Source: a virus
Lineage: Duplodnaviria; Heunggongvirae; Uroviricota; Caudoviricetes
DNA: 43,148 nucleotides
Virus record (IMG/VR): IMGVR_UViG_3300026521_000571
Reading direction: 5' to 3' (one strand)
Part shown: positions 25,812 through 42,589 of the stretch, piece after piece
How the letters are laid out: every line of letters starts with the position of its first letter
Position numbering within the stretch: the stretch's first letter is position 1
The notes under the pieces: generated by a model
Seen by the model: only the letters and a program-made list of their open reading frames with translations
Database searches by the model: none
Told to the model about the DNA's origin: nothing
Translations under genes and position numbers: made by a program

Positions 25812-26618
25812 TTAATTTTCTCCATTTCTATTTAAATTTTCTTCTACATCAGCCTGTGCTTCATCAGCTTGTGCTTCATCAGCCTGTGCTTCATCAGCTT
25901 GCTCTTCATCAGCCTGTGCTTCATCAGCTTGCTCTTCATCAGCTTGCTCTTCATCAGCCTGCGCTTCATCAGCTTGCATTGCATCCATAAATGATGTTAC
26001 CAGTATAACTGATGCCACTTTTGCATCTGACATTTCTAACATAGATTGGAATAATAATACAACATAAACTAAAGTAATTATTACACCCCAGAATATATTA
26101 ATATATGACTCTATCCAAAATAAAAAGATAAATCCAAGAAGTATAAACCACAATACATTTAATAATTCTCTTTTTTCTATCAGTGTTTTAGCTTCCTGAT
26201 TAAGCAATATAAACATACTCCAGAAAATCTTTAGATTTTCTCTAGTTGTATCGTACCAATTCCAAAACCAGTTTGATTCCGTATAAATTAAATAGTCAGT
26301 TGACTTTAAACCCAAGTTATACATAACTTTATCTTCATCGACTGGTTTTAACCCAAGCCTATTGGTCAATGCTAAAAAATTCCAATGGAGCATCGCTCTA
26401 TAAGCCCAAGCGAAAGTGATAGGAATGACGAATACACCCATGATTAAAAATATACTAACCATTTCTAATCCGGCACTTATATCACCATGTGGTAATAGAA
26501 TATCTACAACAATTCCAACTGCCATTATTGGCAGTGCTATGAAAACATCTAAATGATATTTTCTAGGATTAATATCTTCGTTGCGAAGATTCGCAACGAA
26601 CTGATCTATGACAAACAT
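25812..26618 (-). CDS. Multi-pass membrane protein with acidic QADE[A/E] repeat tail
   Basis: About four hydrophobic segments; C-terminal pentapeptide repeat. Confidence 0.75.
   Translation of the reverse strand: MFVIDQFVANLRNEDINPRKYHLDVFIALPIMAVGIVVDILLPHGDISAGLEMVSIFLIMGVFVIPITFAWAYRAMLHWNFLALTNRLGLKPVDEDKVMYNLGLKSTDYLIYTESNWFWNWYDTTRENLKIFWSMFILLNQEAKTLIEKRELLNVLWFILLGFIFLFWIESYINIFWGVIITLVYVVLLFQSMLEMSDAKVASVILVTSFMDAMQADEAQADEEQADEEQADEAQADEEQADEAQADEAQADEAQADVEENLNRNGEN
25847..25977. repeat. 15-bp coding tandem repeat, about 8.7 units
   Basis: Units tcatcagc(c/t)tg(tg/ct/cg)ct encode QADEA/QADEE on the minus strand. Confidence 0.95.
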
Positions 26619-29260
26619 TATTCACCTACCTCCGTTTTTAAATCTGTTTCAAGTTCAGGCTCATCATCAACATCTATGACATCTAGACCTTGAACTTCCT
26701 GAACACCTTTTGCTTTTTTAGGCTTCTTCTTCTTTTTGGCCTTCTTCTTTTTAGGCACATTGGCCTTTTTCTCTTTCGGCTCTTCGAAAGTCTCTTGCAT
26801 TTTCTCTTTCACAAGATTATCAGCTATAAATTGATTCTCTTTTTCAATGCAATCTTTACTCTCTTCATCCGAAAGCACCTCAAGTTTTAGTGCTTCGTCA
26901 ACAACTCTAATAGTGACTTTAGATCTTTCATCTAGTTCACCATTGAGTTTAAGTTGAGTTAATTGTGACACTACAAAATCATTTATGAATCTTGTAATTG
27001 GCCTTGCACCCATTGAAGGATCATATGCTTTTGCAGCAATAATCAATGGTGCAGCATTTGACCATACGAGATCAATCTTGTGTTCAGATTTAACCAATTT
27101 AGCCATTTTACTAAGCTCACTATCAGCAATCTCAATAATGTTAGCTAAACTCAACGCATTATAATTAACAATGGCATCAAATCTATTGATCATCTCTGGT
27201 CTCATAAATTCACCAAGATTATCTAGGCTTAGGTTACTGGTCATGAGAATAATAGTATTCTTGAAGTCAACTTCTTTTCCTTGCCCATCTGTAAGACGAC
27301 CAGCATCAAGTACCTGAAGCAACGCATCCATAACTCTAGGATGTGCTTTCTCTATTTCATCAAAAAGTATTACACTATATGGATTATTCCACACAGCATC
27401 TGTCAATTGACCACCACGATCATGACCAACATAACCTGGAGGTGATCCAAATAATCTTGATACAGCATGTCCTTCCATGTACTCAGACATATCGAATCTA
27501 TGTAATGTTTTATCAGTATCGAATAAACATTTAGAGATCGTCTGAGCAGTTAGTGTCTTACCAACACCTGTAGGCCCAAGCAGTAAGAATGAACCAACTG
27601 GTTTATTCGCATTTACAAATCCCAACATAGAGTTCTGAATCACTGAAGTAATTTTATACACAGCATCTTCTTGACCTTTAACAACCTGCATTGTATTCTC
27701 AGGAAGATTTTTATATCTTTCGATATCTTCTTCTTGTGCACTTGCAGGAATACCAGTCCATTTTTCAATAACTGTTTTTATTACCCCCGGATCCATGAAA
27801 TTCAAGTTAGCTCTTGAAGCTTTTATAAGCTCTTCTTTTTGAGCTTTAAGTTCCTCGAGTTTTTCATCCAACTCAGGTAATTTATTAAACTCACCAAGGT
27901 TTATAAGAGTTAATCTTTGATTGATTATCTCTTTTTCTTCTTGATGATTTAAAGCTATCTGATCAATAAGCTCTTTTTGCGCTTCAATATCCGTTTGGAT
28001 ATTTTCAAGATGCTCGAGGCTCTTCTTAAGCTCCTCTTTATCGATTTCATCACCTTCAATCTCTTTCCAGCGAATCTCCATCTTGAGTGCATCAACCTTA
28101 GCTTTAGCTTTACTAAGCTCATCCGGTAAAGCATCCATACGCATTTTAAGGATACTACCAGCTTCTTCAATCAAATCTATAGATTTATCCGGCTGATTTC
28201 TATGCGCCAAGAATTTATTTGACAGTTTAATAGCAGCTACCATTGACTCATCCGGGATAACTATAGAAAAATAATCCATAAATCCCCGAGCTCTCGCTTC
28301 CAAGATATTCAAGACTTGATAGTCACTCATCTCTGTAATTCTTACAGGTTGAGTTCTTCTAGTCATAGCATTATCTTTTTCAACTAGTTTAAATTCATCG
28401 TTAGTTGTAGCTCCGATGAGTCTGCTTGCACTTCTAGCCATAGCTGGCTTCAAAGCATTTTTGAGCAAATCATTACTCATTATTAAATGGAATTCATCAA
28501 TGAAGATTATGCTATCATCCTGCGCTGCTGAATCCATGATACTCATAAGAACTTCTGCAGCCGCTTGGCCTTCACCAACGACTTTAGCAATATCTATTTG
28601 CCAAATACGAGTTCCTAACAACTCCAATGGAATCCCATCTTTTCGAGCTATTTTTTCAGCAAGCCCCTCGACTATAGCAGTCTTACCAGTACCAGCTTCA
28701 CCAATAAGAATTGGATTTCTTTTGGTCTTACGGATAAGTATCTGCATAACCCTTTGAACCTCTTCATCTCTACCAATAACTGGGTCAAGCTCACCATCTA
28801 GTGCCTTTTGAGTCAAATCAACACCATATTTTTCCATTAGCTCAATATTGCTTGAACTATAGAATCCCATATTTGGATTCAGTGGAATTATTTTGGTTAA
28901 AGCTGAGTCAACCACTGTTCTATCAGCTTTTTCATAGATATAAGTTTTAATAATGGTACTAAAGGTACTACTATTATTAATTAAGAATCTTAGTGTTCTA
29001 GGCAAAGCTAGAAACACATCTTCGGATGAGCTTTGAGCTTGTCTAAGCCAATTGATTAGATCATCAGAAGTTCCTTTAATCTTTTTAATTTTAAGATTAT
29101 TTAAAACATGTTCTTGAGCCTCAGCTCCAACTAGTGTTCTAAATAAACTAGTCCCGGCCAAATTAATGGCGAAATTATTTAATACCCAATCACTTGGGAC
29201 TTCTTCGGAAGGCTTCAGAAGTTTTAAAATATCGGCCGATATTTTCGTAAGATTTTGCAT
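26618..29260 (-). CDS. clpB: ClpB-like Hsp100 AAA+ chaperone
   Basis: LDPVIGRDEE, GEAGTGKT, IFIDEFH, PDKSIDL, middle coiled coil, GPTGVGKT, RFDMSEY, GSPPGYVG, FDEIEKAH, GARP; no IGF loop seen. ATG 29260 fits the AAGGA spacing better than TTG 29266. Confidence 0.93.
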   Translation of the reverse strand: MQNLTKISADILKLLKPSEEVPSDWVLNNFAINLAGTSLFRTLVGAEAQEHVLNNLKIKKIKGTSDDLINWLRQAQSSSEDVFLALPRTLRFLINNSSTFSTIIKTYIYEKADRTVVDSALTKIIPLNPNMGFYSSSNIELMEKYGVDLTQKALDGELDPVIGRDEEVQRVMQILIRKTKRNPILIGEAGTGKTAIVEGLAEKIARKDGIPLELLGTRIWQIDIAKVVGEGQAAAEVLMSIMDSAAQDDSIIFIDEFHLIMSNDLLKNALKPAMARSASRLIGATTNDEFKLVEKDNAMTRRTQPVRITEMSDYQVLNILEARARGFMDYFSIVIPDESMVAAIKLSNKFLAHRNQPDKSIDLIEEAGSILKMRMDALPDELSKAKAKVDALKMEIRWKEIEGDEIDKEELKKSLEHLENIQTDIEAQKELIDQIALNHQEEKEIINQRLTLINLGEFNKLPELDEKLEELKAQKEELIKASRANLNFMDPGVIKTVIEKWTGIPASAQEEDIERYKNLPENTMQVVKGQEDAVYKITSVIQNSMLGFVNANKPVGSFLLLGPTGVGKTLTAQTISKCLFDTDKTLHRFDMSEYMEGHAVSRLFGSPPGYVGHDRGGQLTDAVWNNPYSVILFDEIEKAHPRVMDALLQVLDAGRLTDGQGKEVDFKNTIILMTSNLSLDNLGEFMRPEMINRFDAIVNYNALSLANIIEIADSELSKMAKLVKSEHKIDLVWSNAAPLIIAAKAYDPSMGARPITRFINDFVVSQLTQLKLNGELDERSKVTIRVVDEALKLEVLSDEESKDCIEKENQFIADNLVKEKMQETFEEPKEKKANVPKKKKAKKKKKPKKAKGVQEVQGLDVIDVDDEPELETDLKTEVGE

Positions 29261-29292
29261 CTTCAATTCCTTTAAAAATAAATTACAATTAA

Positions 29293-29320: not shown

Positions 29321-29420
29321 AAAGCAAATGGATCCAATTTTGCGTAAGGGAATTTATACGCGTATTATCGAATAAAAAAATTCGACACCCAATACATCTA
29401 TGACCCCAGAGGGAGAGGCT

Positions 29421-29987
29421 TTAATAGCCTCTCTTGTTCCTCCAGAAGTCATAGAAAATGACGCTCTTTGGTGAGAGCTTGTTAAAGCTCCACCAAAGAG
29501 CGAACACTGTCCCTAGAAGGGCACCTAGTCCGACGAGGGCACCGAGAGCCCAAGCAACTGGGTTGTTTATAATGAGCTCCCAGTTCGATGTCACTCCAAA
29601 ATGGAGTGACACAAAGAAAGCGGCGAAAATCCAGTGATCCGGATTTTCGCCATCTTCGCCTCTTTGGGCCTTGTGTTGGAGATAAACTCCGAAAAGGCCG
29701 AGAGCCCAGGCCATAATACCTCTTAAAACTCTTTTCCAGATCGGGCCTTGGCTCGCGGCCGCGAGCCAAATGTTAGCCACTAGGGCGAATGCCCCAGTGG
29801 CTAACCAAGTAATCCCTGCCACCTCTGCATACGCTTGGGCAGTAGCTGCCCAAGCGTAATCGGTCCCTCCGTGACCGATTACAGAAATACCAGAAACCGC
29901 CACGCTGAAAAGTGTGGTCATGACTACTAGAGTCACAGAAGATTTAATCCAGAAATCTAAAGATTTCAAAACATTAATAGCTTTCAT
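29421..29987 (-). CDS. Multi-pass membrane protein; GC-elevated, hairpin-rich gene
   Basis: 188 aa, about five hydrophobic helices, AAGGAG RBS. Confidence 0.8.
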   Translation of the reverse strand: MKAINVLKSLDFWIKSSVTLVVMTTLFSVAVSGISVIGHGGTDYAWAATAQAYAEVAGITWLATGAFALVANIWLAAASQGPIWKRVLRGIMAWALGLFGVYLQHKAQRGEDGENPDHWIFAAFFVSLHFGVTSNWELIINNPVAWALGALVGLGALLGTVFALWWSFNKLSPKSVIFYDFWRNKRGY

Positions 29988-30007
29988 TATATTCTCCTTA
30001 TGAGATT

Positions 30008-30113
30008 ACACCCAATGAAAAGGGCTGCAGCATTACCTGCACTATAATATGTCTATTATTGACAACTATAAAGAACCTACCCGATGTAAGTTCAATAATA
30101 TTATTTATATACT
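30008..30113. repeat. 106-bp direct repeat, copy 1 (divergent intergenic region)
   Basis: Matches 36882-36987 with 5 mismatches. Confidence 0.95.
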
Positions 30114-30171
30114 TAATATATTTATTCTAAAACGAACATATAATAATTAAATTACATTTTAAAGGAAATAT

Positions 30172-31455
30172 ATGTCAAGTACACGAAAGATTATAACAGG
30201 AGCCGCTGGCTTCATTGGAAGAAATTTAACGAAAGCAGTTCTTTTGAACTCAACACAAGATGATACTATTGTATGTATTGATATTCAAGATATGACATCT
30301 CTGGGTTTCGAAGAAGCTAATATCAATGGAGCTAATTTAATACTAATTCAAAAAAATATGAAAGATATAACACCAGATGAATACAATATAATTTTTGATG
30401 TTCAAGAGGACCAAGACGAAGAAGAACAGAAAGAGTTCTTTTTGACTCATTTGGCGAGTTCAGTCGGAGTAGATAAAATCCTAGAATCTCCCCAGGCAAT
30501 TACCGATGATCTAATAATGAACTCAAATTTAATTAATTATTTAAATAATTTACCGGATAATATAACAGGCCGTGTTGTATTTACAAGCTCCAGTGAAATA
30601 TATGGTGAGCAAACAGTCCTCGAAGAAACCACTGATCTTAAAATGCAATCACCGGAAAACTATTTAAGAGGGATATACGCAAGCCAAAAACTTATAACAG
30701 AACATCTATTTTTAAATTCTTTAATTAATTCAAAGACAGATGTAAGAATTCTTAGGTTATTTAGTATAACTGGGCGCGATCAATCAACTGATTTCGTAAC
30801 TCCGAAATTGATTGAACAAGCAGTGAATAATCAAGATATTACTATTTATGGGGATGGTTCACAATCAAGAGCATTTATGCACATCGATGACCTAATAAAT
30901 ATTATTCTTCATGAAGAGTTATTTAGCACTCTTAGTGATGGAACCGATAATAAAATTATTAACGCAGCGAACCCAAGAAATTTAACTACAATTTTTCAAT
31001 TAGCTAATTTAATAAAAACATTAACAGCAAGTTCAAGCGAAATAGTTTTTGAAGATGGACCAATCGGAGAAACATCAAGAATCCCTCAAATCAATAGACT
31101 TAATAAATTCTATAGACCTCAGATAGATCTTTCGACAATTATTAAATCAATAGTCGAGACACAATTCCCAGAAAAAGAACTCAAAGAATTGAATTCAATC
31201 AATATAAATACAACAGAAGTTCAAGAAGATGAAATTGATTACATTGAGTTCGAAATAACTGGAAATACAGAACCCGAAGCAACCATTATAATTGAATGGG
31301 CTGATTCTTCATTGGATTCAACCGAAGCTGATGCCGAAGGAAATTGGACAATCGAGGTTAAAAAATTAAAAGAAGATGTTCAAAATGAAGTGGCTACAAT
31401 TACAGCGCAATTGAATACAATTGTATTCAGCGCAATTAATTTTAGGGTTGAATAG
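30172..31455 (+). CDS. NAD-dependent nucleotide-sugar epimerase/dehydratase fused to a C-terminal bacterial Ig-like domain
   Basis: ITGAAGFIG, HLAS, FTSSSEIYG, YASQK, GDGSQSRAFMHIDD; C-terminal ITGNTEPEATIII...ADAEGNWTIEV. Confidence 0.88.
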   Translation: MSSTRKIITGAAGFIGRNLTKAVLLNSTQDDTIVCIDIQDMTSLGFEEANINGANLILIQKNMKDITPDEYNIIFDVQEDQDEEEQKEFFLTHLASSVGVDKILESPQAITDDLIMNSNLINYLNNLPDNITGRVVFTSSSEIYGEQTVLEETTDLKMQSPENYLRGIYASQKLITEHLFLNSLINSKTDVRILRLFSITGRDQSTDFVTPKLIEQAVNNQDITIYGDGSQSRAFMHIDDLINIILHEELFSTLSDGTDNKIINAANPRNLTTIFQLANLIKTLTASSSEIVFEDGPIGETSRIPQINRLNKFYRPQIDLSTIIKSIVETQFPEKELKELNSININTTEVQEDEIDYIEFEITGNTEPEATIIIEWADSSLDSTEADAEGNWTIEVKKLKEDVQNEVATITAQLNTIVFSAINFRVE

Positions 31456-31478
31456 AGTTGAATAAAACGGAGTAGATT

Positions 31479-32171
31479 ATGAATGTAATTATCGCGGCAC
31501 ATATCGATGATGTTGAAATAGGAATGGGAGGTATTCTAGATAAACTAGCCTCCTTAAAAGAAGAGACGAAAATAATTATTTTAAGTTCAGGAAGAAAGAG
31601 TCAGTCAGAAACCAACATAGTGCGAGAAGAAATCTTTAGAAAGAACATTTCATTTTTTAAAGGCCGGGAGTACTCTGGTCGCTTCGAGTGCTTTGTCAAC
31701 CCAATGCCGGTTGATTTGGAGTTCCATATTTATAGAGATCAACTAAGAGAATTTCTCGAAGGCACTTATAAAAACATTTTATTAGAAATACCAGCTGATG
31801 AAATTCTTAGAGCATTTACAGTATATCCTGATAATCATAATGATCATAAGATTGCTTCAGAATTAACGGATACTTGTGTGCGTTTGAACTCAAACCTCCC
31901 GAAAAAACCAAATTTGTATCTCAAATATTTTATTCCATCAAGTGCCGGTTTCGATATTCCGAAAAAGAATCTTTTTTATTTTAATTTCAGTTCTTTTGCA
32001 CTCAAGAAGAAGATGATTCAGAATTATAAAAATCTTTTCGATGGTCCATCGATGGATACCAAATATATTAAACTCTTCAATAAAATCCAAGGTCGTTTTA
32101 TTAATAAAAAGTTCGCGGAGGTATTTCATGCCGAATACATCAATGGATACTTTGGTAATTTATTTTCCTAG
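31479..32171 (+). CDS. PIG-L/LmbE-family N-acetylglucosaminyl deacetylase
   Basis: AAHIDDVEIGMGG and DNHNDH motifs; GGAG RBS. Confidence 0.85.
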   Translation: MNVIIAAHIDDVEIGMGGILDKLASLKEETKIIILSSGRKSQSETNIVREEIFRKNISFFKGREYSGRFECFVNPMPVDLEFHIYRDQLREFLEGTYKNILLEIPADEILRAFTVYPDNHNDHKIASELTDTCVRLNSNLPKKPNLYLKYFIPSSAGFDIPKKNLFYFNFSSFALKKKMIQNYKNLFDGPSMDTKYIKLFNKIQGRFINKKFAEVFHAEYINGYFGNLFS

Positions 32172-32820
32172 GAAGAGTTCTGTTGCAACAGAACTCTTCC
32201 GCCAGAATCCAAAAGAAGAAATTCCAGATTTAAATTCACTAAAAGAATTATATAAATACCTCAAATCTCCCAAGGCAATGAAAGTAAAAGAGATAATAAT
32301 TATTGATTTTACAAATCCTATTTTTTCGGAACGTCGATATCCTCGTAAAACTACGAACCTAAAAATTACAAAAGGTATATATAATTTTTTAAAGTATATT
32401 AACCAAACATCCCAGAATTTTCCAAAAATAAAATACGTTTTTTTATCTTCAGTAGGAGTTCTAGACCGATATTTTAATTTACCAGGAAGCTCCCAAAAAC
32501 AACTACGTTATAATCTCGATAAAAAACAGACAGAAGAGTTCTTAAGAACTCAAACGTTTATAAATTATATTATAATTAGATTACCTCTCTGTCCAGTTAA
32601 AAAAGAAAATCTCTTGATAAAAAATATAGGAAAGAGTTCAAAAGAACTCTTTAACTTAGATCTAGGGATCCCAGTACTTGCTATAAATAAAATAAAATTA
32701 TTTTTCGAGGCAATAAAAAATCCGGATAAGAGTGCCGAGGCACTCTTATCCGTCGAGTTCATTACAATCGAAGATACATCCAATCCTGAAAAAACTAAAG
32801 AATTTCTTCTGAGGAATTAA
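32128..32820 (+). CDS. Degenerate SDR/epimerase-like protein
   Basis: YVFLSSVGV, YNLDK, YIIIRLP; no GxxGxxG; start 32128 follows GGAGG. Confidence 0.55.
   Translation: MPNTSMDTLVIYFPRKSSVATELFRQNPKEEIPDLNSLKELYKYLKSPKAMKVKEIIIIDFTNPIFSERRYPRKTTNLKITKGIYNFLKYINQTSQNFPKIKYVFLSSVGVLDRYFNLPGSSQKQLRYNLDKKQTEEFLRTQTFINYIIIRLPLCPVKKENLLIKNIGKSSKELFNLDLGIPVLAINKIKLFFEAIKNPDKSAEALLSVEFITIEDTSNPEKTKEFLLRN
32171..32200. repeat. 30-bp perfect palindrome (GAGTTC-N10-GAACTC type)
   Basis: ggaagagttctgttgcaacagaactcttcc, starting at the last base of the PIG-L stop codon. Confidence 0.95.
32723..32752. repeat. 30-bp inverted repeat with GAGTGC-N4-GCACTC core
   Basis: cggataagagtgcc-ga-ggcactcttatccg. Confidence 0.9.
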
Positions 32821-34576
32821 TAGCCTCTTGGGCTAAATCTTTAAAGACATTCAATAGATGTATATTTGGTGCATCAAAAACATTAAACCCAGCTTTATGC
32901 AAAGCTAAATAACTATTTGAAATTTCAGATAGTTCACTATCCGAAAATCCAGAATTTATTTTCGAGTAATATCTTGTCCCTATTTTAATATCTCCTGTAT
33001 TTGAATCCAAATAATGTATTGTAATTTCAGGTCCTATGAAATTAAGCAACTTATTTAAAACACAATATCTGGATTCAACCCGCAGTTTATGCGAAGTGGA
33101 AATATGACTGAAGATCATTACTGCAGGCCCATCTTCCCTATGCAAAACCCCAAAAGAATACCATGTAAATTTAAGTTGAGTTCGGCCGAGGTATTTTATA
33201 ATTGCTGGCCCATTATCTCGATGCAAAACATCAAACTGGTAGAAATGAAGAGATAATTTTTTTATTCGACCAGTTGATTTAACCTGATGTATTTCAATCC
33301 TAGCCGGTCTATTATCTCGATGACACTTACCAAAAAGAAAATATTGATATCTATAAAAATTAAGATTATCTTCATATACTCTTTTTTCATAAGCAGGCCC
33401 ATCTTCTCGATGTCTATGATTAAATCTATACCATATTTTTTTAACTTGATTGATTTTTCCATAAGAATCAAATATGTAATTTAAACTCGCTGGCCCACCA
33501 ATTCGATGATGTTGACCAAATTTATACCACTTCTTAGTCACTGACAATACTCGTTGCCCAGTATTCTTTCTCGCTATAACAATACTTGCAGGACCATCTT
33601 CTCGATGCAGTAATCCAAATGAATAGAATTCCTTACGATATTCTTCATATTCCTCGGTTATAAACATTCCATGTTTTATCTTGAATTTGTCATAGATATA
33701 ATCTCTCTTGGCTGAAGCACCAAATTTAGACATATTTGATATATGCAAATCAAATGCTTTCTTTGTAAAATGAATACCAAAAAGAAAATATCTAACCTTA
33801 ACAGTCCTATTAGAGAGTACAATATATTCAGCAGGACCATCTTCTCTATGTTTATAACCAAACTGATAAAAATACATTTTTTTAATATCAGAGCCCCTTC
33901 TTTCAACTACAGTAGGACCATTCTCGTTATGCATTTTACCAAATTTATACCAATTATAAATTCTATATATGTGATCAACCACTGGATAAAAATCAATATA
34001 AGCTGGTCCATCCTCTCGATGATATTTATTAAATTGATAATAATCCTCCCTAAAATATTTGGTGTCGTCTTTAATTGAGAGTAATTTTACTGCAGGCGCA
34101 TTTTCTCTATGTTTGAAACCAAATACAAAAAACCAAATTTTAGTTTGCAAGTTCCCATAATCATCTATAACTGCAGGCCCATTTTCATTATGAAAATTAT
34201 TAAATTTTAACCATTGTTGGCTTTTTGCGTTGTTGGTTTTAGTCATGTAAAAAGGATGCTCATCACAATGATCAAAACCGAATTGACAAGGTTGTTTTGC
34301 ATCAGGAGTAATACTCATTTGGCATCCAAAAAAATTTTTAGAATCCGGAGAATCAAATTCAACAAGATAATCATGAAACCTAAGAGGCTTGTTATAATTT
34401 CTACAGAAATCAAAAAATCTCTGAAGTTCTCGATCACTTGATTCGAGATCTAAAAAATATTTTTCAATTAGATTCTCAAAACCACCTGTGAAATTTTCAA
34501 GTATTTGGTTGATATTTGGCCGTAATTTTTCAAACGGCCCAATATCAACCTCCTTTATTTCATTAAATATTTTCAT
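32795..34576 (-). CDS. HREDGPA-repeat protein (about 11 repeats)
   Basis: Repeats HNENGPA, HRENAPA, HREDGPA, HRIGGPA, HRDNGPA etc.; MORN-variant-like beta repeats. Confidence 0.85.
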   Translation of the reverse strand: MKIFNEIKEVDIGPFEKLRPNINQILENFTGGFENLIEKYFLDLESSDRELQRFFDFCRNYNKPLRFHDYLVEFDSPDSKNFFGCQMSITPDAKQPCQFGFDHCDEHPFYMTKTNNAKSQQWLKFNNFHNENGPAVIDDYGNLQTKIWFFVFGFKHRENAPAVKLLSIKDDTKYFREDYYQFNKYHREDGPAYIDFYPVVDHIYRIYNWYKFGKMHNENGPTVVERRGSDIKKMYFYQFGYKHREDGPAEYIVLSNRTVKVRYFLFGIHFTKKAFDLHISNMSKFGASAKRDYIYDKFKIKHGMFITEEYEEYRKEFYSFGLLHREDGPASIVIARKNTGQRVLSVTKKWYKFGQHHRIGGPASLNYIFDSYGKINQVKKIWYRFNHRHREDGPAYEKRVYEDNLNFYRYQYFLFGKCHRDNRPARIEIHQVKSTGRIKKLSLHFYQFDVLHRDNGPAIIKYLGRTQLKFTWYSFGVLHREDGPAVMIFSHISTSHKLRVESRYCVLNKLLNFIGPEITIHYLDSNTGDIKIGTRYYSKINSGFSDSELSEISNSYLALHKAGFNVFDAPNIHLLNVFKDLAQEAINSSEEIL

Positions 34577-34582
34577 TATCTT

Positions 34583-34942
34583 CTATCCTTCAAAAGAATA
34601 TTCATTGTTTACATTGTACTCAATCGTTTGAGTTTTTATATCAATTACAACAACGAGTTCTTTCGCCGGTCCGAGCAAATCAAACTCGGAAATGAATTTA
34701 TCAAAGTCTCCAAATAATTTATTTTTTGGAGATATAAAATCATCATTTGTAATATATTTTCTTCTTACTTCATCTGCTGTAAAATATACTCGAATTTCTT
34801 TAGTTCCATGTTGAAGTAAGTTATTTATGCTTTTTTCATCATCATTAAAAAAAGCTGCCTGGATATTTAAAAAAGTATCCTCCGAAATCTCTCTCGCTTC
34901 TAGTTTCCCATTCTCATCTAATTCAGTAATTATAAATTTCAT
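34583..34942 (-). CDS. Hypothetical protein
   Basis: 119 aa, AAGGA RBS, packed in the operon. Confidence 0.7.
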   Translation of the reverse strand: MKFIITELDENGKLEAREISEDTFLNIQAAFFNDDEKSINNLLQHGTKEIRVYFTADEVRRKYITNDDFISPKNKLFGDFDKFISEFDLLGPAKELVVVIDIKTQTIEYNVNNEYSFEG

Positions 34943-34953
34943 TTTAGTCCTTT

Positions 34954-35127
34954 TTATTTTTTAAATATATAGTTATCAACTTTCCAGAACACGATTGCTC
35001 CAAAGAATTGACCTAACATTAAATTAGCCCAAATGGACAAGCCTCGTGTTTCAAGAAACGCCATTAATGGCATCATAACCAAAGCAGATATCTGCCACCG
35101 CAAATGATAAATAAAATATTTTTGCAT
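34954..35127 (-). CDS. Small membrane protein, 57 aa (missed by the ORF track)
   Basis: MQKYFIYHLRWQISALVMMPLMAFLETRGLSIWANLMLGQFFGAIVFWKVDNYIFKK; fills the gap exactly; AAGGT upstream. Confidence 0.8.
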   Translation of the reverse strand: MQKYFIYHLRWQISALVMMPLMAFLETRGLSIWANLMLGQFFGAIVFWKVDNYIFKK

Positions 35128-35133
35128 AATAAG

Positions 35134-35808
35134 TTAAACCTTCTTTTTATATAAAATTATATCATCATATATTCCGTCGAAAGGAATATATGATTTAAAT
35201 ACATACTCCTCTTCATAAACTTCATCAAGCCAGTCGAAGAATTCATCATCGGCTGTGCAACCTCCATAACCTTCCCCAATAAGTAAAAAATGTTTAGGTA
35301 AAAGATCCTGCATCTTTTTAAAAGACTGTCCTTGATTACAATCATATGGTATCCATGAAGCTATCAAAACATCAACATTAAGTTCACTTGGACTCAAGTC
35401 CTCGAAAGCTTTGAACGCCAAATAATTTTTATTTAGGTTATCAGAAATCATTGCGCTATTTTTATCAAAACCGTAATTTACTACCGGATTCAGATCCAAA
35501 GTGTATCCAGTTCCAACACACCCTATTTTTTCATTCAAAAGCCTACTGAGATATCCGGTACCAGCATATATTTCTACGAATGATATTAAATTATATTTCT
35601 CAAAAACATCAGATATTTCTCTTAGGACTTTTTTAGTCAAGAGAGCGAATCCAAAGTTCTTGGTGTAAAAATCTGATCGAAAAGTATAACTAGCGATGTC
35701 AAATGAGCCCAGACGTCTATTGTCAACCTCGTCAGGAATTTGACCTTTGAGTAATAACTCTTTAGCTTCTTCGATCGATACCTCTTGTTTATTGAATACA
35801 TATGTCAT
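35134..35808 (-). CDS. SAM-dependent methyltransferase-fold protein
   Basis: FVEIYAGTGY motif I; VLIASWIPY; LIGEGYGGCTAD. Confidence 0.65.
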   Translation of the reverse strand: MTYVFNKQEVSIEEAKELLLKGQIPDEVDNRRLGSFDIASYTFRSDFYTKNFGFALLTKKVLREISDVFEKYNLISFVEIYAGTGYLSRLLNEKIGCVGTGYTLDLNPVVNYGFDKNSAMISDNLNKNYLAFKAFEDLSPSELNVDVLIASWIPYDCNQGQSFKKMQDLLPKHFLLIGEGYGGCTADDEFFDWLDEVYEEEYVFKSYIPFDGIYDDIILYKKKV

Positions 35809-35811
35809 CTT

Positions 35812-36105
35812 CTATTCATCAGCCTCTTTTAAAATTTTAGCATGTTCCATTAATGCAAATACCTCACCTAAAGTCAATTGTTGAGGAATTATTGTATCAA
35901 GAGTCACCTCATTAATTTCTACATCCAGATATCTTCTACTTTGAATACCTGATCTGTAATCATTAGCTAATGCATTCCACTCCTCAATTTCAGTTTCCTG
36001 AAGTCTTTTATAATCCTCAGTTTCATCTAGAGTACGAAAAACTTTTAAAGTTTCAATAACTTCATCATTGACACTATTTTCGATTTCACTTTTATAAATA
36101 TACAT
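35812..36105 (-). CDS. Acidic hypothetical protein
   Basis: 97 aa, AGGAG RBS. Confidence 0.7.
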   Translation of the reverse strand: MYIYKSEIENSVNDEVIETLKVFRTLDETEDYKRLQETEIEEWNALANDYRSGIQSRRYLDVEINEVTLDTIIPQQLTLGEVFALMEHAKILKEADE

Positions 36106-36120
36106 TTCTTCTCCTTAAAA

Positions 36121-36180
36121 AATAAAAAAAAATTAACCTATTTTAGGCACCTTGGGCGAAAGAAATCATAGCCCAGATGC
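36121..36180 (-). terminator. Possible intrinsic terminator after the nucleotidyltransferase gene
   Basis: TGGGC/GCCCA and CCTA/TAGG stems followed by a long T-run on the minus strand. Confidence 0.4.
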
Positions 36181-36860
36181 TATGATTTCTTGGATTTCTT
36201 GAATTCGTCTGGGTAGACGAATTCATATGTATTAAGCCAGAAGTCCAGGCCTTTGGCCTGATCAACATATTTCGCCATCGGTGGAATCGTTATCTTACGG
36301 CTCCCCCTCCAACCACCGAGAATATCTAACATTTTCATGTAGATATTCTCGGTGAACGTCACCTGTCGTCGGTCTAATTTCTTGAGGAGGCTGATGCCGA
36401 TGGCGACATCCTCCTCTAAAATCTTGTCACATAATGTGACCTGGAAATCGACTGGGTGGCCGGCCCAGTTGAAAACTCTATATTTATGGAGACTGGTTGT
36501 CCCCATGTATAAATAGCATCCGTTGAAGCTGCTAATCTCGAAGGTCGCCACCCCTTCGAGATATTTAATAGCAGCTTCAAAGATGCCGCTATCCGTTGTA
36601 AAGAAGTCATAATCTGACTCCTGGGTTGTCAAAGATGACCCCGCTAATCGTGACCCTGAAAGAGTTAGACCTAACTCTTTCAGGTTCATTTCAATTTTAT
36701 GCATATCCTCCAATCTGGAGATCGGGTTGATCTCCTTTTTCTCGGTGCCGTACCATGACGCACCGTTTGAAAATTCCGGGAATTCAATCCCTGAATTCTC
36801 AAAATAGTTAACAGCAGCCTCTAAATTCTTTAATAACTTTTTATCATTAATTATTTTCAT
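36180..36860 (-). CDS. Pol-beta-superfamily nucleotidyltransferase; GC-elevated, hairpin-rich gene
   Basis: LSGSRLAG...SDYDF (GS...DxD) motif plus later VDFQV; GGAGG RBS. Confidence 0.72.
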   Translation of the reverse strand: MKIINDKKLLKNLEAAVNYFENSGIEFPEFSNGASWYGTEKKEINPISRLEDMHKIEMNLKELGLTLSGSRLAGSSLTTQESDYDFFTTDSGIFEAAIKYLEGVATFEISSFNGCYLYMGTTSLHKYRVFNWAGHPVDFQVTLCDKILEEDVAIGISLLKKLDRRQVTFTENIYMKMLDILGGWRGSRKITIPPMAKYVDQAKGLDFWLNTYEFVYPDEFKKSKKS

Positions 36861-36881
36861 TATGTCCTCCTTACGGAAATA

Positions 36882-36987
36882 ACACCCAATGAAAAGGGCT
36901 GCAGCATTACCTGCACTATAATATGTCTATTTTAGACAACCTTAAAGAACTTACCCGATGTAAGTTCAATAATATTATTTATATACT
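36882..36987. repeat. 106-bp direct repeat, copy 2 (divergent intergenic region)
   Basis: Matches 30008-30113 with 5 mismatches. Confidence 0.95.
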
Positions 36988-37045
36988 AACTGAAGTAATT
37001 CTAAAAAACAAAGGATTCATGCAACATCAAGATATAGGAAAATAA

Positions 37046-40000
37046 ATGAATATAAGATTAGTATTTAACTCAAGAACTGGAATTCTTCGAGCAGAGAGAA
37101 GCGCTCGCTCGAACCCAAGAATAAAAAAACGGGTTCCATTTAATATGACAAGAAACTTTTGGAGCATCCCAGCGTATTCAATACTTCAGCAAATTTCTAT
37201 GCTGGATATGAAAATTCATAAAAGAAACCCACCTGGATTTCGAAAGGCTGCTAGAAATTACTATAGTCTATTACCACAAGATATTCCATTATATTTATTG
37301 GAGTTTGAGGAATTCTATAATGCTTTTGAAGATTATCTCTGGATTCAAGAACCTCAAGGATTGCGAAGACTTCTGAAGAAAGAAGTCGAGAAAACAATAG
37401 GTGTAAAACCGGCAAGTCAAAAAGCAACAATTGATGGAGTAGCCACAAGTATTTCGATTATTCTTGAAACAGGAACATCTCAATTAAAAGAAAATTTTAA
37501 AAAGCAGATAAAGAAACCATTTGATGTGTACTCAATTTTTTGGATGTATAAGACAGTTGATAAATTCTTTGGAGCGGTTAATAAGGCATCGCTTGTTTTG
37601 AACCCGAACTACAAAAAAATTATGCGAGCCGATCCAAAACGAGAACGCATTCTGAAATATTTTAATGAATCGATGTTGTATAGAAATACCACAAAATCCC
37701 CACGGGAAATCACGTACTCTAATCTTTTGACTCTTTTGAAGAATCAATCACAATCTGGAATAAAGGTTAATCTGTATTCAAATACAGGTGCTCCTTTTAA
37801 ATACATGAACTTCGAGAAATTACTTCTAGAAGATGGTAATGAGCAGTTGGTTGAAAAAGCACTCGTTGTTTATAATAATGATGATAGTTTCTTCGAGTTC
37901 AGAAGTACTTATTATTTCTTCGATCCAGAAGAAGTAAAGAAAAAACACGATGATATTTTTAATTATTTAATGAAGCCTGAGTTGCAAGATTTCATCGATG
38001 GTCTTAGGAACCTCAAAGATAAAAACACAAGCCTGAAAAATAAGGTTCCTGTTAAAAAATTAAAAGAGACAAGTTTTACAGGAACCCTGCAAGAGCATCA
38101 AGAAGAAGCATTAAGTTGGGCTTGGAGTTTAATTGAACAAGGAGCACCAGGTTTAATCCTAGCCGACGAGATGGGCATGGGAAAAGCATTAGAAAACAAC
38201 ACACCGATTAAAATTCCAGGCAGTTGGAAAAAAATTAAAAATATTAAAGTTAATGATTATGTTATTGGTAGAGATGGGTTTCCAACAAGAGTAACTGGCG
38301 TTTACCCACAAGGGATTCGCCAAATGTATAAAATTATTTTTGACGATGGACGTGAAATTGAAGCGGATGCTGAACATCTTTGGACAGTATTTATAGAAGA
38401 GAAAAATCAACAGGTTTCAACTACTAAAGAAATAATGAATTTATTGGAAAATAATAAATCAATATCTATACCGACTATAATTCCAGAATCAAATATAGAC
38501 ATAGAATCTAGATTAAAATATTTAAAATCATTAACTCAACATAGATCTCAAGAAATAATTTTAAATGATTTTGATCAAACCGGTATCAATGAATTAAAAG
38601 AATTAATTTATAGTTTAGGTGGTACATTAAAGATAATCAAAAATAAATTACAGTTTGAGTTCAAAAGCACTCTTGATATAAAAAATATTGAACCATCAAG
38701 AAAAACCGAGGCAACATGTATTTCAGTAGATAATCAAGATAAATTATTCGTCGCAAAAGATTATATTACAACACACAACACTATCTCGACAATTTCTTTC
38801 TTGAGTTCTCTGATGAAATATAAAAATTTCAAAACTATCTTAATTATATGTCCGAGTTCAGTTGTATCTGTTTGGGAAAATGAGCTAGCTCGCTTTGATC
38901 CAAAAGCAGCGAAGAAAATTGGCTCAGGAATCCAAATAATGAGCTATGAAAGAGCCATCCGAAATTCACCTAAGAAAGTAGATTTACTAATCCTAGATGA
39001 AGCCCAGAAGATTAAGAATAATAATACTTTGGCTTTTAAAAACATAAGCTTAATAGAAAAGAAGTTCGTGTGTATTTTAACTGGAACACCGATTGAAAAT
39101 AAAGTCGATGATCTATTTAGCCTCCTTCAAGTAATTAACCCAAGCGCTTGGCATCTATTTAAGATTATGAAAAAATCTTACAAAGATGTAGAAATGGTTA
39201 CTAAAATAAGGGAAGTAATAGATCCGATTTATTTACAACGACATAAGACATCGAATCAATTGAAAGCGAAGATGACTGTAGAAGAAGTTTTCATCCCCGC
39301 TCTTGATATTGAAAAGAAAATAACGAAAGAAATTAAAAAAGTATTCTCTGATAAAATGATTAAATTGAATGCTTCAAATAATCATGATTTTTATCAGACA
39401 CAAGTTGCTTTGACTGGACTTCTACGATTAAGACAAGCGGTTAGTTTGCCTAGTCAACTACCTGATGAATTAATTGAACACTTTGATCCAAAAGTCGGTA
39501 GAGTTGCTCAACATGTTGATCCAAGTAAAGCTAAAAAGTTGGTAGAGATTTATAAAAAAATACATCAGAATAAGCAGAAGGTTGTTGTATTCACTATGTT
39601 TTCTGGGACTATAAAATATCTCAAAGTGCTTCTAGAAAAAAATGGAGCCAATGTATTGACTCTCTCTGGACAAGATAGTAGTCAAAAAAGAAAAATCATG
39701 ATTGAAGAATTTCAGAGACCGGATTCAAAATATGATGTTTTTATAATTATGCTTAAAGCAGGAAATTCTGGGATTACCTTAACTAACGCAAATAATGTTG
39801 TACTCTATGACTTATGGTATAATCCGGCTGTAGTTGCACAAGCACTTGCTAGAGTCCATAGAATTGGTCAACAACTTGATGTTACTGCTTATATATTAAT
39901 TACTCAAGATTCAGTTGACGAAGCAATTAATAAAATATTCTTGAATAAAAATAAATTAATTGATGCTTTTAGTAAACCAAAAGACGCGTTGAAACCAGAT

Positions 40001-40054
40001 CTAAAAAAGAGCGAGATCGCTAATTTTGGAAAGGATTTATTTCAACAAAAATAG
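37046..40054 (+). CDS. SNF2-family helicase/translocase with an intein in motif I
   Basis: LADEMGMGK|intein|T, ICPSSV, LILDEAQKIKN, LTGTPIEN, VVVFTMF, AGNSGITLT, YDLWYNPA...QALARVHRIGQ. Confidence 0.93.
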   Translation: MNIRLVFNSRTGILRAERSARSNPRIKKRVPFNMTRNFWSIPAYSILQQISMLDMKIHKRNPPGFRKAARNYYSLLPQDIPLYLLEFEEFYNAFEDYLWIQEPQGLRRLLKKEVEKTIGVKPASQKATIDGVATSISIILETGTSQLKENFKKQIKKPFDVYSIFWMYKTVDKFFGAVNKASLVLNPNYKKIMRADPKRERILKYFNESMLYRNTTKSPREITYSNLLTLLKNQSQSGIKVNLYSNTGAPFKYMNFEKLLLEDGNEQLVEKALVVYNNDDSFFEFRSTYYFFDPEEVKKKHDDIFNYLMKPELQDFIDGLRNLKDKNTSLKNKVPVKKLKETSFTGTLQEHQEEALSWAWSLIEQGAPGLILADEMGMGKALENNTPIKIPGSWKKIKNIKVNDYVIGRDGFPTRVTGVYPQGIRQMYKIIFDDGREIEADAEHLWTVFIEEKNQQVSTTKEIMNLLENNKSISIPTIIPESNIDIESRLKYLKSLTQHRSQEIILNDFDQTGINELKELIYSLGGTLKIIKNKLQFEFKSTLDIKNIEPSRKTEATCISVDNQDKLFVAKDYITTHNTISTISFLSSLMKYKNFKTILIICPSSVVSVWENELARFDPKAAKKIGSGIQIMSYERAIRNSPKKVDLLILDEAQKIKNNNTLAFKNISLIEKKFVCILTGTPIENKVDDLFSLLQVINPSAWHLFKIMKKSYKDVEMVTKIREVIDPIYLQRHKTSNQLKAKMTVEEVFIPALDIEKKITKEIKKVFSDKMIKLNASNNHDFYQTQVALTGLLRLRQAVSLPSQLPDELIEHFDPKVGRVAQHVDPSKAKKLVEIYKKIHQNKQKVVVFTMFSGTIKYLKVLLEKNGANVLTLSGQDSSQKRKIMIEEFQRPDSKYDVFIIMLKAGNSGITLTNANNVVLYDLWYNPAVVAQALARVHRIGQQLDVTAYILITQDSVDEAINKIFLNKNKLIDAFSKPKDALKPDLKKSEIANFGKDLFQQK
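38186..38779 (+). mobile_element. Class 3 mini-intein (198 aa) with decayed LAGLIDADG remnant
   Basis: Starts with Ala (ALENNT); block B ADAEHLW, block F TCISV, block G TTHN/T give the W-C-T triad; splicing restores DEMGMGKT. Confidence 0.9.
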
Positions 40055-40085: not shown

Positions 40086-40883
40086 ATGATGAGTTCAAAT
40101 ATAAAAAATAATAAAGTTATTATACTTGAGCAGGCTGTACTATCTGATGTTGAAATAATTGAAGAGAGTACTGTTGGTTCTCAATATAAACTTAAATTTA
40201 GAGCTAAACTACAAGAAGCAGATGTGATAAATAATAATAGACGTGTTTATCCGGCAGATACCCTTCAAGCAGTTTACGCACAATTGAAGCCGAAGGCTTT
40301 GGAACGCAAGTTAGTTGGTGAAATGGATCACCCACAACCAAGTGGAGATAATGCTAGTAAAATCAAGAGATCAAGTACGCTAGCTCTTGATAGAGTTTGT
40401 GTACTCTTCGCTGATCTTGAGTGGGATGGAAATTCTATTTTTGCAGTTTGTGAAACACTAAGTAATACTAAAGGAATGGATCTATATGCTTTATTGAAAG
40501 ATAGAGTGACAATAGGATTTAGTCTTAGAGCGTTCGGTGAAACTAGAAAAAGAGCGGATGGTGTTACTGAAGTTCTAGCTAAAGGAATAAAAGCATTAAC
40601 ATATGATGTTGTTGCTAATCCAAGTCACGATAATTCGGTTATCCTTGAATTCCTTGATGAAGGGACTAATATCCAGAGTGTTCTTCAAGAATTAACAGAG
40701 TCTTATAATAATATAAACAAAGTCGCATTGGAAGAAAGCTCGTCAATTCAAGGCGAATCTGAGGTTCATTGTTTCGGAAATATATGTATCAAAGCTCCTT
40801 TACAAGAGGCCATTGATTATATAGTTGAAGAAGCAGTCCAAATGAACACAGGAATCAAAAATATTAAAGTCCAGACGCTATAA
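40086..40883 (+). CDS. Prohead core protease, T4 gp21-like
   Basis: QEADVINNNRRVYP, GEMDHP, GFSLRAFG, YDVVANPS. Confidence 0.9.
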   Translation: MMSSNIKNNKVIILEQAVLSDVEIIEESTVGSQYKLKFRAKLQEADVINNNRRVYPADTLQAVYAQLKPKALERKLVGEMDHPQPSGDNASKIKRSSTLALDRVCVLFADLEWDGNSIFAVCETLSNTKGMDLYALLKDRVTIGFSLRAFGETRKRADGVTEVLAKGIKALTYDVVANPSHDNSVILEFLDEGTNIQSVLQELTESYNNINKVALEESSSIQGESEVHCFGNICIKAPLQEAIDYIVEEAVQMNTGIKNIKVQTL

Positions 40884-40975: not shown

Positions 40976-42589
40976 ATGCCTTTAAACACATCAACACTGT
41001 TGTTGGAAAACTATGGTTCTTTCATTAAAGATCATGAAACTCTTTTTGAAGATTCAGTGAGCGCAGCTCAAGTTATTTCTGACGATAGTTATTTCGAAAT
41101 GTATGTTGATAAACTTACAAGTGGTCTAGAAGAATCAGTAGTAAGTAGAATTAAACCTATTCTTGAAAGAGAAAGAGAAATGTACATAGAAGAGTCAGGG
41201 TCAATTTTGACATCTCCTCAAGCTATTGCGTATGCTATTTCTTCTTTCCCAATGTTAATTAACATCTATGCTGAGCCATTGCTAAGTAAAGTTGTAACAG
41301 TTTACCCAACTGATAAACCAACAATGTCTATTCCTAAACTTACTTGGATATCTAAAATTATAGATCACGCTGGTAATGAGACAGAAGTAGCATTCCCTAC
41401 AGCTAGACAAATGGTTAGACCAGATATGGTAACATTGACTCTTGCTTCTAAAACAGCTAATCTATTTAATCTTCTTGGAGATATTAGCCCAAGTGATTTC
41501 AGAATCTCTAAAAGAAATTTCAGAGTTAGAAATATTAGATCAGCTTCAGATGCAGAATCAATTCTTATCAGTGTTCAAGCGGACGCTAGAGGAAGCATAA
41601 TCTCTGAGTTCGATGTTCAAGCTGTGGATAGTGATGGAAATGCTATTATAGTTGATGGACAACCAGCTTTCGATGTTTATAAAATCCAAGGTCAAGTTGA
41701 TTTTGATTCAGGTGCTTTAACATGGTCAGTAATTCAAGTAGTTCAAATTGCTGGTTCTGAAAATGGTGCAGATAAATTTGATGCAGGTGAAATCGATGTT
41801 AAATTTAGAGTTTTCGGAAACGGAAATGGTAGAGGTGTAGTTAAATCTAGACCAAAACAAGAAATCATCGATATCGATATGGATATTGAAGATAGTTTCG
41901 AAGTAGAAAATATCGAAGAAATCATCCAAGATTGGAAATCTGTTTATAGTGTTAATGTCCTTGCAGAGTTGAAAAACTATGTTAAAGATCAAATTAAACT
42001 TAACAGAGACTTTGAAATTGCTGATAAACTAGAAGAAAATATTGCATTGGCTAAGAAAATTGGACAATACCAAGAAATCGATCTACAAGCATTCGTAGGA
42101 AGCGCTACAGATGATAAAGGTGTTAGACCAACTACAGTTCAAGATATCTTCAAAAACATCGTTCCTCAAATCATGGCAATGGTTGAAAGAATGAGAAGAC
42201 AAAACAACATGGATGTTCAATACCTAGTTTGTGGTATAGACGTAGCAGTTGTATTGAAATCTCTACAAGAATTCGCTGTTAAAATGGATGGAATGACTGG
42301 TGGAACAGGTCTATCTGGAACAACAGGTGACTTTGCAAAACTAGAGATTGTATCTTCTTATGCAGTAGAACCTTCACTACTTCACTTCGTAACTGGTGCT
42401 AATACACTAAGCAGAAGTTCAATCGTTGAGGTTATGTATAAGCCGTTGTACATCATCAATGAAATTACAAATTCAATTCGTAGAACATTCATAAAATCGC
42501 GAAACTGGATAGGAATTGTAAGAAGTTCTGGGATCGCCACAATAAAACTCAAAAACTACGAAATGTACTTCGCAGCAGCAGGTAGATAG
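40976..42589 (+). CDS. Major capsid protein, T4 gp23-like
   Basis: 537 aa directly after the protease, AGGAG RBS, gp23-like layout, followed by a strong hairpin. Confidence 0.82.
   Translation: MPLNTSTLLLENYGSFIKDHETLFEDSVSAAQVISDDSYFEMYVDKLTSGLEESVVSRIKPILEREREMYIEESGSILTSPQAIAYAISSFPMLINIYAEPLLSKVVTVYPTDKPTMSIPKLTWISKIIDHAGNETEVAFPTARQMVRPDMVTLTLASKTANLFNLLGDISPSDFRISKRNFRVRNIRSASDAESILISVQADARGSIISEFDVQAVDSDGNAIIVDGQPAFDVYKIQGQVDFDSGALTWSVIQVVQIAGSENGADKFDAGEIDVKFRVFGNGNGRGVVKSRPKQEIIDIDMDIEDSFEVENIEEIIQDWKSVYSVNVLAELKNYVKDQIKLNRDFEIADKLEENIALAKKIGQYQEIDLQAFVGSATDDKGVRPTTVQDIFKNIVPQIMAMVERMRRQNNMDVQYLVCGIDVAVVLKSLQEFAVKMDGMTGGTGLSGTTGDFAKLEIVSSYAVEPSLLHFVTGANTLSRSSIVEVMYKPLYIINEITNSIRRTFIKSRNWIGIVRSSGIATIKLKNYEMYFAAAGR

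Follow-up and report, generated by a model that had tools for sequence, protein, structure and literature searches.

The IMG/VR record IMGVR_UViG_3300026521_000571, a stretch of 43,148 nucleotides that is referred to here, at its full length, as the window, comes from an uncultured, AT-rich (30% GC) tailed phage (Caudoviricetes) with distant T4-type genes. The public DNA run with the best match to this stretch, its possible source, is a hydrothermal-vent metagenome; parts of the stretch also occur in an RNA run, whose share of 0.21 was given no weight as evidence. Two divergent gene junctions of the window carry a duplicated element, which an original prediction, made from the letters of the DNA, had described as a phage-specific early promoter combined with a structured leader RNA. 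The two copies are present as described (30008-30113 and 36882-36987, each 106 nt long, with five mismatches at 30058, 30060, 30067, 30068 and 30077), and each of them is flanked by two divergent genes, one on the minus strand (29421-29987; 36180-36860) and one on the plus strand (starting at 30172 and 37046, respectively). A repeat finder pairs 30002-30132 with 36876-37006 (90% identity over 131 nt), and an alignment that allows one indel extends the minus-strand homology to 29985-30130 (146 nt) and 36858-37004 (147 nt), from a TTAGAAT motif through the Shine-Dalgarno (SD) sequence to the ATG. The two copies, designated A and B, are about 95% identical in the window.

Copy A (29985-30130, minus strand) comprises a box, a leader, the SD and the ATG (29985-29987) of a gene for a 188-aa membrane protein (29421-29987); the gene for a ClpB-like ATPase, clpB (26618-29266), is next in this unit. 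Copy B (36858-37004, minus strand) comprises the same parts, ends with the ATG (36858-36860) of a 226-aa gene (36180-36860), and heads a minus-strand operon of ORFans that extends from 36860 down to 32795. In every copy that we found, the last elements of the homology are AAGGAG and the ATG. The genes behind them are mutually unrelated and mostly without family; an exact-protein look-up gave no record for the 188-aa protein, and the proteins downstream of copies A and B had no relatives in IMG/VR. From the comparisons described below, we propose that each copy is probably a regulatory cassette that starts a leftward unit of accessory genes and that consists of a promoter box, a folded leader and a ribosome site.

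Relatives were obtained in three ways. A 21-mer from the leader, searched in metagenomes, gave two true relatives from a single metagenome (L001 and L003), and three other matches (L002, L004 and L005) were discarded as GC-rich chance matches. A 281-kb IMG/VR contig (G001) was found via its capsid protein (61–63% identity), and a 137-kb contig (G002) via the box pattern. No DNA relative of the window was detected among GenBank phages by either a sensitive or a fast search, and a 24-mer from hairpin 2 of the leader had no match in IMG/VR. L001 is the ortholog of the copy-B region (89% identical). The whole cassette is also present in L003 (94% identical to copy B and 92% to copy A), where it likewise occupies a divergent junction and precedes an unrelated MYG1-like gene. 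Further copies thus exist in relatives, in full in L001 and L003 and as the box with hairpins 1 and 3 in G002. The same cassette heads unrelated genes in each setting: the membrane protein gene, the 226-aa ORFan, the MYG1-like gene of L003 and two further genes of G002. Four copies of TTTTACAAAAGCCAAATGTTTACATCAG (6688-7112), opposite in strand to the cassette, lie in the 570-nt gap upstream of it in L003; a dyad hairpin follows each copy.

The 5′ part of the cassette is a box in two halves. On the minus strand, TTAGAAT (30124-30130 in copy A, 36998-37004 in copy B) marks the 5′ limit of the homology and is followed, after 10 nt, by AGTATATAAATA (30102-30113 and 36976-36987), which contains TATAAATA. 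The window form, TTAGAAT-N10-AGTATATAAATA, falls under a consensus of TTAGAAT-N10-A(G/C)TATAWAWATA across sites, and the information content drops to nothing just upstream of TTAGAAT. The pattern is strongly polarized. It occurs 15 times on the minus strand of G001 and never on the plus strand, against two and two occurrences of a reversed-pattern control; in G002 the counts are six and zero (control, zero and zero), to which BLAST adds one site, and both occurrences in the window are on the minus strand. All 15 boxes of G001, the one of these two contigs in which genes were mapped, are intergenic. Two of them lie 50–70 nt before tRNA genes, and others precede ORFans, an AAA ATPase gene and GC-rich RNAs without family. 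G001 and the window both have their capsid gene on the plus strand; in the window, the portal (376-2595), the prohead protease (40086-40883) and the gp23-like capsid (40976-42589) are all rightward genes. The box class therefore serves the strand opposite to the virion genes. The phage itself is a deep-branching T4-like phage, in which the cassettes would start leftward accessory-gene units inside a rightward structural-gene region.

Both junctions of the window have a counterpart in G001. At 135.6 kb, a box stands between clpB on its left and a rightward epimerase gene, matching the junction of copy A, and at 144.8 kb a box stands between a minus-strand operon and the rightward protease and capsid genes, matching the junction of copy B. 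The genes of the minus operon between these syntenic junctions differ between the window and G001. Similarly, the hairpin-rich gene of the 188-aa membrane protein (29421-29987) is absent from the corresponding place in G001 (135398-135631), where clpB follows a 207-nt leader behind the box. Judging from this synteny, both box sites are old. A fresh duplication of the element into new sites was rejected on the same ground, both junctions already bearing a box in a relative whose capsid is 61–63% identical. Strand bias, tRNA-proximal and intergenic sites, and conserved positions in relatives together support the predicted phage-specific promoter in the form of a putative lineage-specific box.

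Several other matches were set aside during this search. Elsewhere in IMG/VR, the box pattern matched one giant-virus-like locus (seven contigs) and three single AT-rich sites, which were treated as chance matches because nothing downstream of them resembles the cassette. A looser pattern (one mismatch per half, variable spacer) was dropped, its matches being at shuffle level. TATAAATA by itself occurs 23 times in the window for 13 expected, mostly within genes.

Two observations concern the RNAs that follow some boxes. GC-rich, strongly structured stretches of at least 150 nt lie directly behind boxes at 102572, 111736 and 270991 in G001 and at 109447 in G002 (L016, L026, L021 and L072, respectively). 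They contain no reading frame and gave neither an Rfam match nor a tRNA call, and they are candidate non-coding RNAs of these phages. Near 216.8 kb in G001 (L031, 1376-1449), ARAGORN calls a box-following tRNA with an oversized anticodon loop (acag), although its score with the tRNA model of Rfam is 58 bits.

The leader that follows the box is predicted to fold on the minus strand into hairpins 1, 3, 2 and 4, in this order, and then into a small hairpin formed by a pyrimidine run and the SD. Hairpin 1 corresponds to the stem proposed originally, GAACUUAC/AUCGG/GUA(G/A)GUUC. It was recovered at 30073-30093, where it has 8 bp with one G.U, begins 8 nt after the box and would form a 5′-proximal stem-loop, and at 36947-36967, where all pairs are Watson-Crick and a U-A replaces the U.G. 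Hairpin 3 (30050-30064) has the stem UGUC...GACA, of which copy B (36924-36938) has a 6-bp version. Hairpins 2 and 4 form an invariant block (30010-30041 and 36884-36915). The first of them is the UGCAG/CUGCA stem already noticed (UGCAG/GUAAUG/CUGCA), and the second is the CCC/GGG stem, present as GCCC/UUUUCAUU/GGGU. In the small hairpin, UCUC pairs with the GAGA of the SD AAGGAG (29994-29999) in copy A (29993-30005), and UUCC pairs with the GGAG of the SD in copy B (36867-36878).

The folding energies point to RNA made from the minus strand, as had been predicted: the minus-strand leaders have fold z-scores of -3.40 and -3.54, against -1.63 for the plus strand, and the G.U pair of hairpin 1, found in three copies, pairs only in minus-strand RNA. 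Compensated changes were found in two hairpins. In G002, hairpin 1 has U-A and also C-G, the latter with a paired deletion of one base pair, and in hairpin 3 a C-G takes the place of the U-A middle pair. Relatives thus add covariation for hairpins 1 and 3, in few independent variants. Conservation is also distributed in blocks. Among the four full copies (A, B, L001 and L003), whose pairwise comparisons are not independent of each other, the segment from the box to hairpin 1 shows 0–1 differences in 41 nt and the block of hairpins 2 and 4 shows none in 36 nt for all six pairs, and the two linkers show 0–4 differences in 22 nt and 4–6 in 24 nt. Owing to the dependence among pairs, a p-value pooled over them is too favourable. 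No match was found by Rfam over the whole window at gathering scores, and a search around copy A at E-values up to 10 gave only chance-level matches.

A hairpin next to the box is a general feature of this class. In 12 out of 12 distinct box-following leaders, a hairpin begins 7–14 nt after the box, the hairpins being unrelated in sequence. Over their first 48 nt, these leaders have a mean folding energy of -11.1 kcal/mol, compared with -5.1 for random windows (p=1.4e-6) and -6.0 for intergenic windows (p=5e-5). Further downstream the leaders are more variable. Two cassettes of G002 have the box, hairpin 1 and hairpin 3 in common with the window, after which comes a short U-rich leader. In L001, an insertion of 85 nt (886-970) consists of two additional hairpins, the remaining hairpins being unaffected. 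It seems that leaders grow by the addition of hairpin modules.

Three further signals in the leader were evaluated and given up. The 9-mer ACACCCAAT from the end of the repeat, reported to recur near clpB, is indeed present at 29385-29393, but it amounts to one extra copy for 0.16 expected, which by itself is not significant, and its surroundings do not align with the cassette; a leader remnant was therefore rejected at this place. An 8-mer, GUAAUGCU, common to the window leader and one G001 leader was judged to be a chance match. The loop of hairpin 2 (30031-30033; 36905-36907) contains the start of a short minus-strand frame (MLQPFSLGV...) that lacks a good SD of its own and ends with a TAA within the SD in copy A and L001, or overlapping the main ATG in copy B and L003; no independent support was obtained for this upstream reading frame.

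The copies appear to have exchanged sequence. L001 combines the flanks and the box spacer of copy B with the A-type linker 1. In G001, one and the same leader is found with two spacer alleles, and one spacer allele with different leaders; one leader of about 115 nt is present five times and another one twice, before unrelated genes. The spacer alleles TTAGAATTACTTCA and TTAGAATAAA are common to the three phages. By their sequences, such mosaic copies point to gene conversion or cassette replacement among copies. Exchange of this kind between copies in the window would explain how two old promoter sites come to be 95% identical. The original prediction had also pointed out that direct repeats could allow the 6.8-kb segment between them to be deleted or amplified. 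The epimerase gene of this segment is kept at the same place in G001, so that a full deletion has not been fixed there.

Taken together, these comparisons suggest the following mechanism. Read on the minus strand, the cassette would consist of the two-part box, a stem-loop about 8 nt further on, additional hairpins, a variable pyrimidine-rich linker, and AAGGAG with the ATG, the linker pairing weakly with the SD. RNA polymerase would start a few bases before hairpin 1, so that the transcript would have this hairpin at its 5′ end or close to it. There, the stem-loop and the folded leader could shield the mRNA from 5′-end-dependent decay and set the level of translation, and a common leader would give the operons behind it the same expression behaviour. 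Stabilisation of the mRNA is, in our analysis, the most likely role of hairpin 1. The near-identity of the copies would result from sequence exchange between pre-existing promoter regions, as proposed for the promoter-early stem-loop (PeSL) cassettes of T4-type phages.

A promoter followed by a structured minus-strand leader is well supported by these sequence comparisons, and we think it rather likely that the box is the promoter of a lineage-specific class. Several points weigh against this interpretation. The activity of the box and its start site are predicted from sequence comparison, the box misfits sigma-70 geometry, and scans of the window with sigma-70 consensus sequences gave no site conserved in both copies. 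Neither a Sigma70_r2 domain nor a MotA C-terminal domain (MotCF) was found in G001 or G002, the latter search being without a positive control. The cassette of L001 is only modestly more conserved than the adjacent gene (about 94% vs 89%). The covariation is real but thin, because there are very few independent variants. The lineage is full of palindromes, and some of the hairpins may be by-products of mutation.

This last point leads to a reading in which the promoter is real and the leader has no RNA function of its own, its identity reflecting a recent conversion tract and its hairpins a mutation bias that makes palindromes. The window and its relatives are indeed dense in dyads and hairpins everywhere, and 27% of the intergenic 48-nt windows of G001 reach -8 kcal/mol. 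The G002 copies manage with just hairpins 1 and 3 before their short U-rich leader, and a strain variant (L001) tolerates two inserted hairpins. The occurrence of a hairpin after the box in all 12 unrelated leaders nevertheless exceeds the intergenic background, both the G.U pair and the strand dependence of the fold are signs of RNA, and conservation is blockwise, with no differences in 36 nt beside 4–6 in 24 nt. We regard this reading as unlikely. A function more specific than stabilisation could be imagined for the block of hairpins 2 and 4, as a cis-acting RNA signal that co-regulates the operons, being either an operator for a phage RNA-binding regulator or a terminator-resistance element like the put sites of HK022. 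The 36-nt block is identical in four copies with both flanks varying, the cassette lies directly behind the promoter of multi-gene operons, and the genes behind copy A contain four terminator-like hairpins for 0.9 expected. Against this, the block is absent from G001 and from the G002 cassettes that have the box and hairpins 1 and 3, no Rfam match and no candidate binding protein were identified, and the four copies come from two close strains, so that their invariance may reflect recent conversion. Such a signal seems to us quite improbable. We hold about the same low expectation for a combined version, in which a phage factor, or the polymerase itself, would read the block in a put-like manner and an unrecognised phage specificity factor would read TTAGAAT, in a lineage where no sigma or MotA homologues were detected. 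If true, the block would let transcription pass through the hairpin-packed accessory operons, or would tie their translation to one regulator.

Two other explanations deny that the element is a leftward regulatory cassette alone, or at all. The repeat, which also lies upstream of plus-strand genes, as pointed out originally, could be a two-way promoter region that also drives the epimerase operon on one side and the SNF2 helicase, protease and capsid genes on the other. Both plus-strand genes start exactly 41 nt past the box, and a plus-strand TATAAT is present in both copies (30044-30049 and 36918-36923). This role was left without support by the alignments: the homology does not extend past the box into the 41-nt gaps, which are unrelated to each other, the 85-nt insertion of L001 breaks the plus-strand TATAAT, no sigma-70-type site is conserved in both copies, and plus-strand RNA folds poorly. 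In addition, the plus-strand genes at such junctions in G001 have a motif of their own, TAAACAAAG, located outside the box at about 35 nt from the ATG. A two-way promoter is therefore very unlikely. It is hardly conceivable, finally, that the repeat is a mobile element resembling miniature inverted-repeat transposable elements (MITEs) or an assembly artefact. The repeat is dispersed, and contigs of the related metagenome end near it (L001 ends 19 nt past the box), but there are no terminal inverted repeats or target duplications, and the repeat is delimited by a start codon and a promoter box. Its copies moreover differ at five positions and in the spacer, the same arrangement is found in independent assemblies, and the junctions are syntenic in G001. 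A leftward cassette made of promoter box, folded leader and ribosome site thus remains our preferred interpretation.

The rightward motif is worth recording separately. In G001, TAAACAAAG(G) is found 35–79 nt before plus-strand start codons, at 45099, 83616, 93541, 135648 and 144834 (five occurrences on the plus strand and one on the minus strand, which are small counts). Look-alikes of TAAACAAAG are present in the 41-nt gaps of both window junctions (30128-30171 and 37005-37045). It may represent the promoter class of the rightward genes. Two neighbouring genes also show unusual features. The SNF2-type helicase gene beside copy B (37046-40054) encodes a Hint/intein-like insert at about residues 365–480, and the gene after clpB (25812-26618) contains nine tandem units of 15 nt (25814-26000) that encode an acidic repeat.

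These results introduce no new principle. From sequence comparison, they delineate a putative promoter class in large AT-rich vent phages of a little-known lineage, and outline how the accessory operons of this lineage would be wired, with a box, a 5′ hairpin and a modular leader. They also yield a rule by which transcription units and small RNAs of such genomes can be annotated. They are chiefly useful as a starting point for mapping transcripts and for identifying what recognises the box.

Among known systems, the promoters of T4 are natural terms of comparison. T4 late promoters have TATAAATA at -10, are read by gp55, are not known to have a conserved upstream box at fixed spacing, and precede late (virion) genes. 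The exact TATAAATA of the window copies, in a T4-like phage, recalls these promoters. However, the window lineage has an upstream box at fixed spacing, TATAAATA is 2 nt nearer to this box in G001, and the sites are located on the strand opposite to the capsid, protease and portal genes, where they precede tRNAs, clpB and ORFans. A T4-type late promoter was consequently rejected, given the fixed upstream box, the strand opposite to the virion genes, and the tRNAs and accessory genes behind it. T4 middle promoters have a MotA box about 12 bp upstream of the -10 element. The window box resembles them in having an upstream element about 12–13 nt before a TATA-type -10 and no TTGACA, but TTAGAAT is unrelated to the MotA box.

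The leader has parallels of two kinds. Stem-loops at the 5′ terminus stabilise mRNAs, as in the E. coli ompA leader and in the stabilisers of phage SP82 and ermC in Bacillus, and the transcripts of the box class are likewise all predicted to have a hairpin, whatever its sequence, at their 5′ end or only a few bases from it. A stabiliser of this kind lies about 0–4 nt from the 5′ end, and removing it shortens the half-life of the mRNA; the spacing between box and hairpin is compatible with such a role. In phage HK022, putL and putR are antitermination RNAs, that is, similar multi-hairpin RNA copies located just behind the promoters of different operons in one phage. The window leader shares this arrangement with them and has no sequence or Rfam similarity to them.

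The closest known kind of element is the PeSL of T4-type phages, described by Arbiol et al. 2010 (PMC2839356) and Comeau et al. 2014 (PMC4122927). PeSLs are repeats of about 100 bp that contain a strong sigma-70-like early promoter, a terminator stem-loop, an SD and a start codon (PMC2839356; PMC4122927). They are concentrated before ORFans in hyperplastic regions, where they recombine, shuffling genes and forming mini-circles (PMC2839356; PMC4122927). The window cassette is likewise a repeated intergenic cassette, about 100–150 bp long, of a T4-type phage (the window has two copies, with the box present 15 times in G001 and six to seven times in G002) that joins a promoter to an adjacent stem-loop and has an SD and a start codon at its 3′ end. 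It also stands before ORFans, in gene blocks whose content varies between relatives, as does the minus operon between the window and G001, and its copies exchange sequence. In contrast, the PeSL promoter is identical to the sigma-70 consensus at -35 and -10 and has AT-rich DNA upstream of it (PMC2839356), whereas the putative promoter of the window lineage is TTAGAAT-N10-A(G/C)TATAWAWATA. The stem-loops of the window are located downstream of the box, in a predicted transcribed leader that is long (about 105–110 nt) and has four or five hairpins. Lying at divergent junctions with no co-directional gene upstream, these hairpins would have no incoming transcription to terminate. The cassette is thus not a new kind of element but a local variant of the reusable cassettes of the PeSL type. 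It carries the idea of regulatory cassettes that double as recombination points over to T4-like phages of a distant branch, whose putative promoter differs and whose hairpins would be transcribed.

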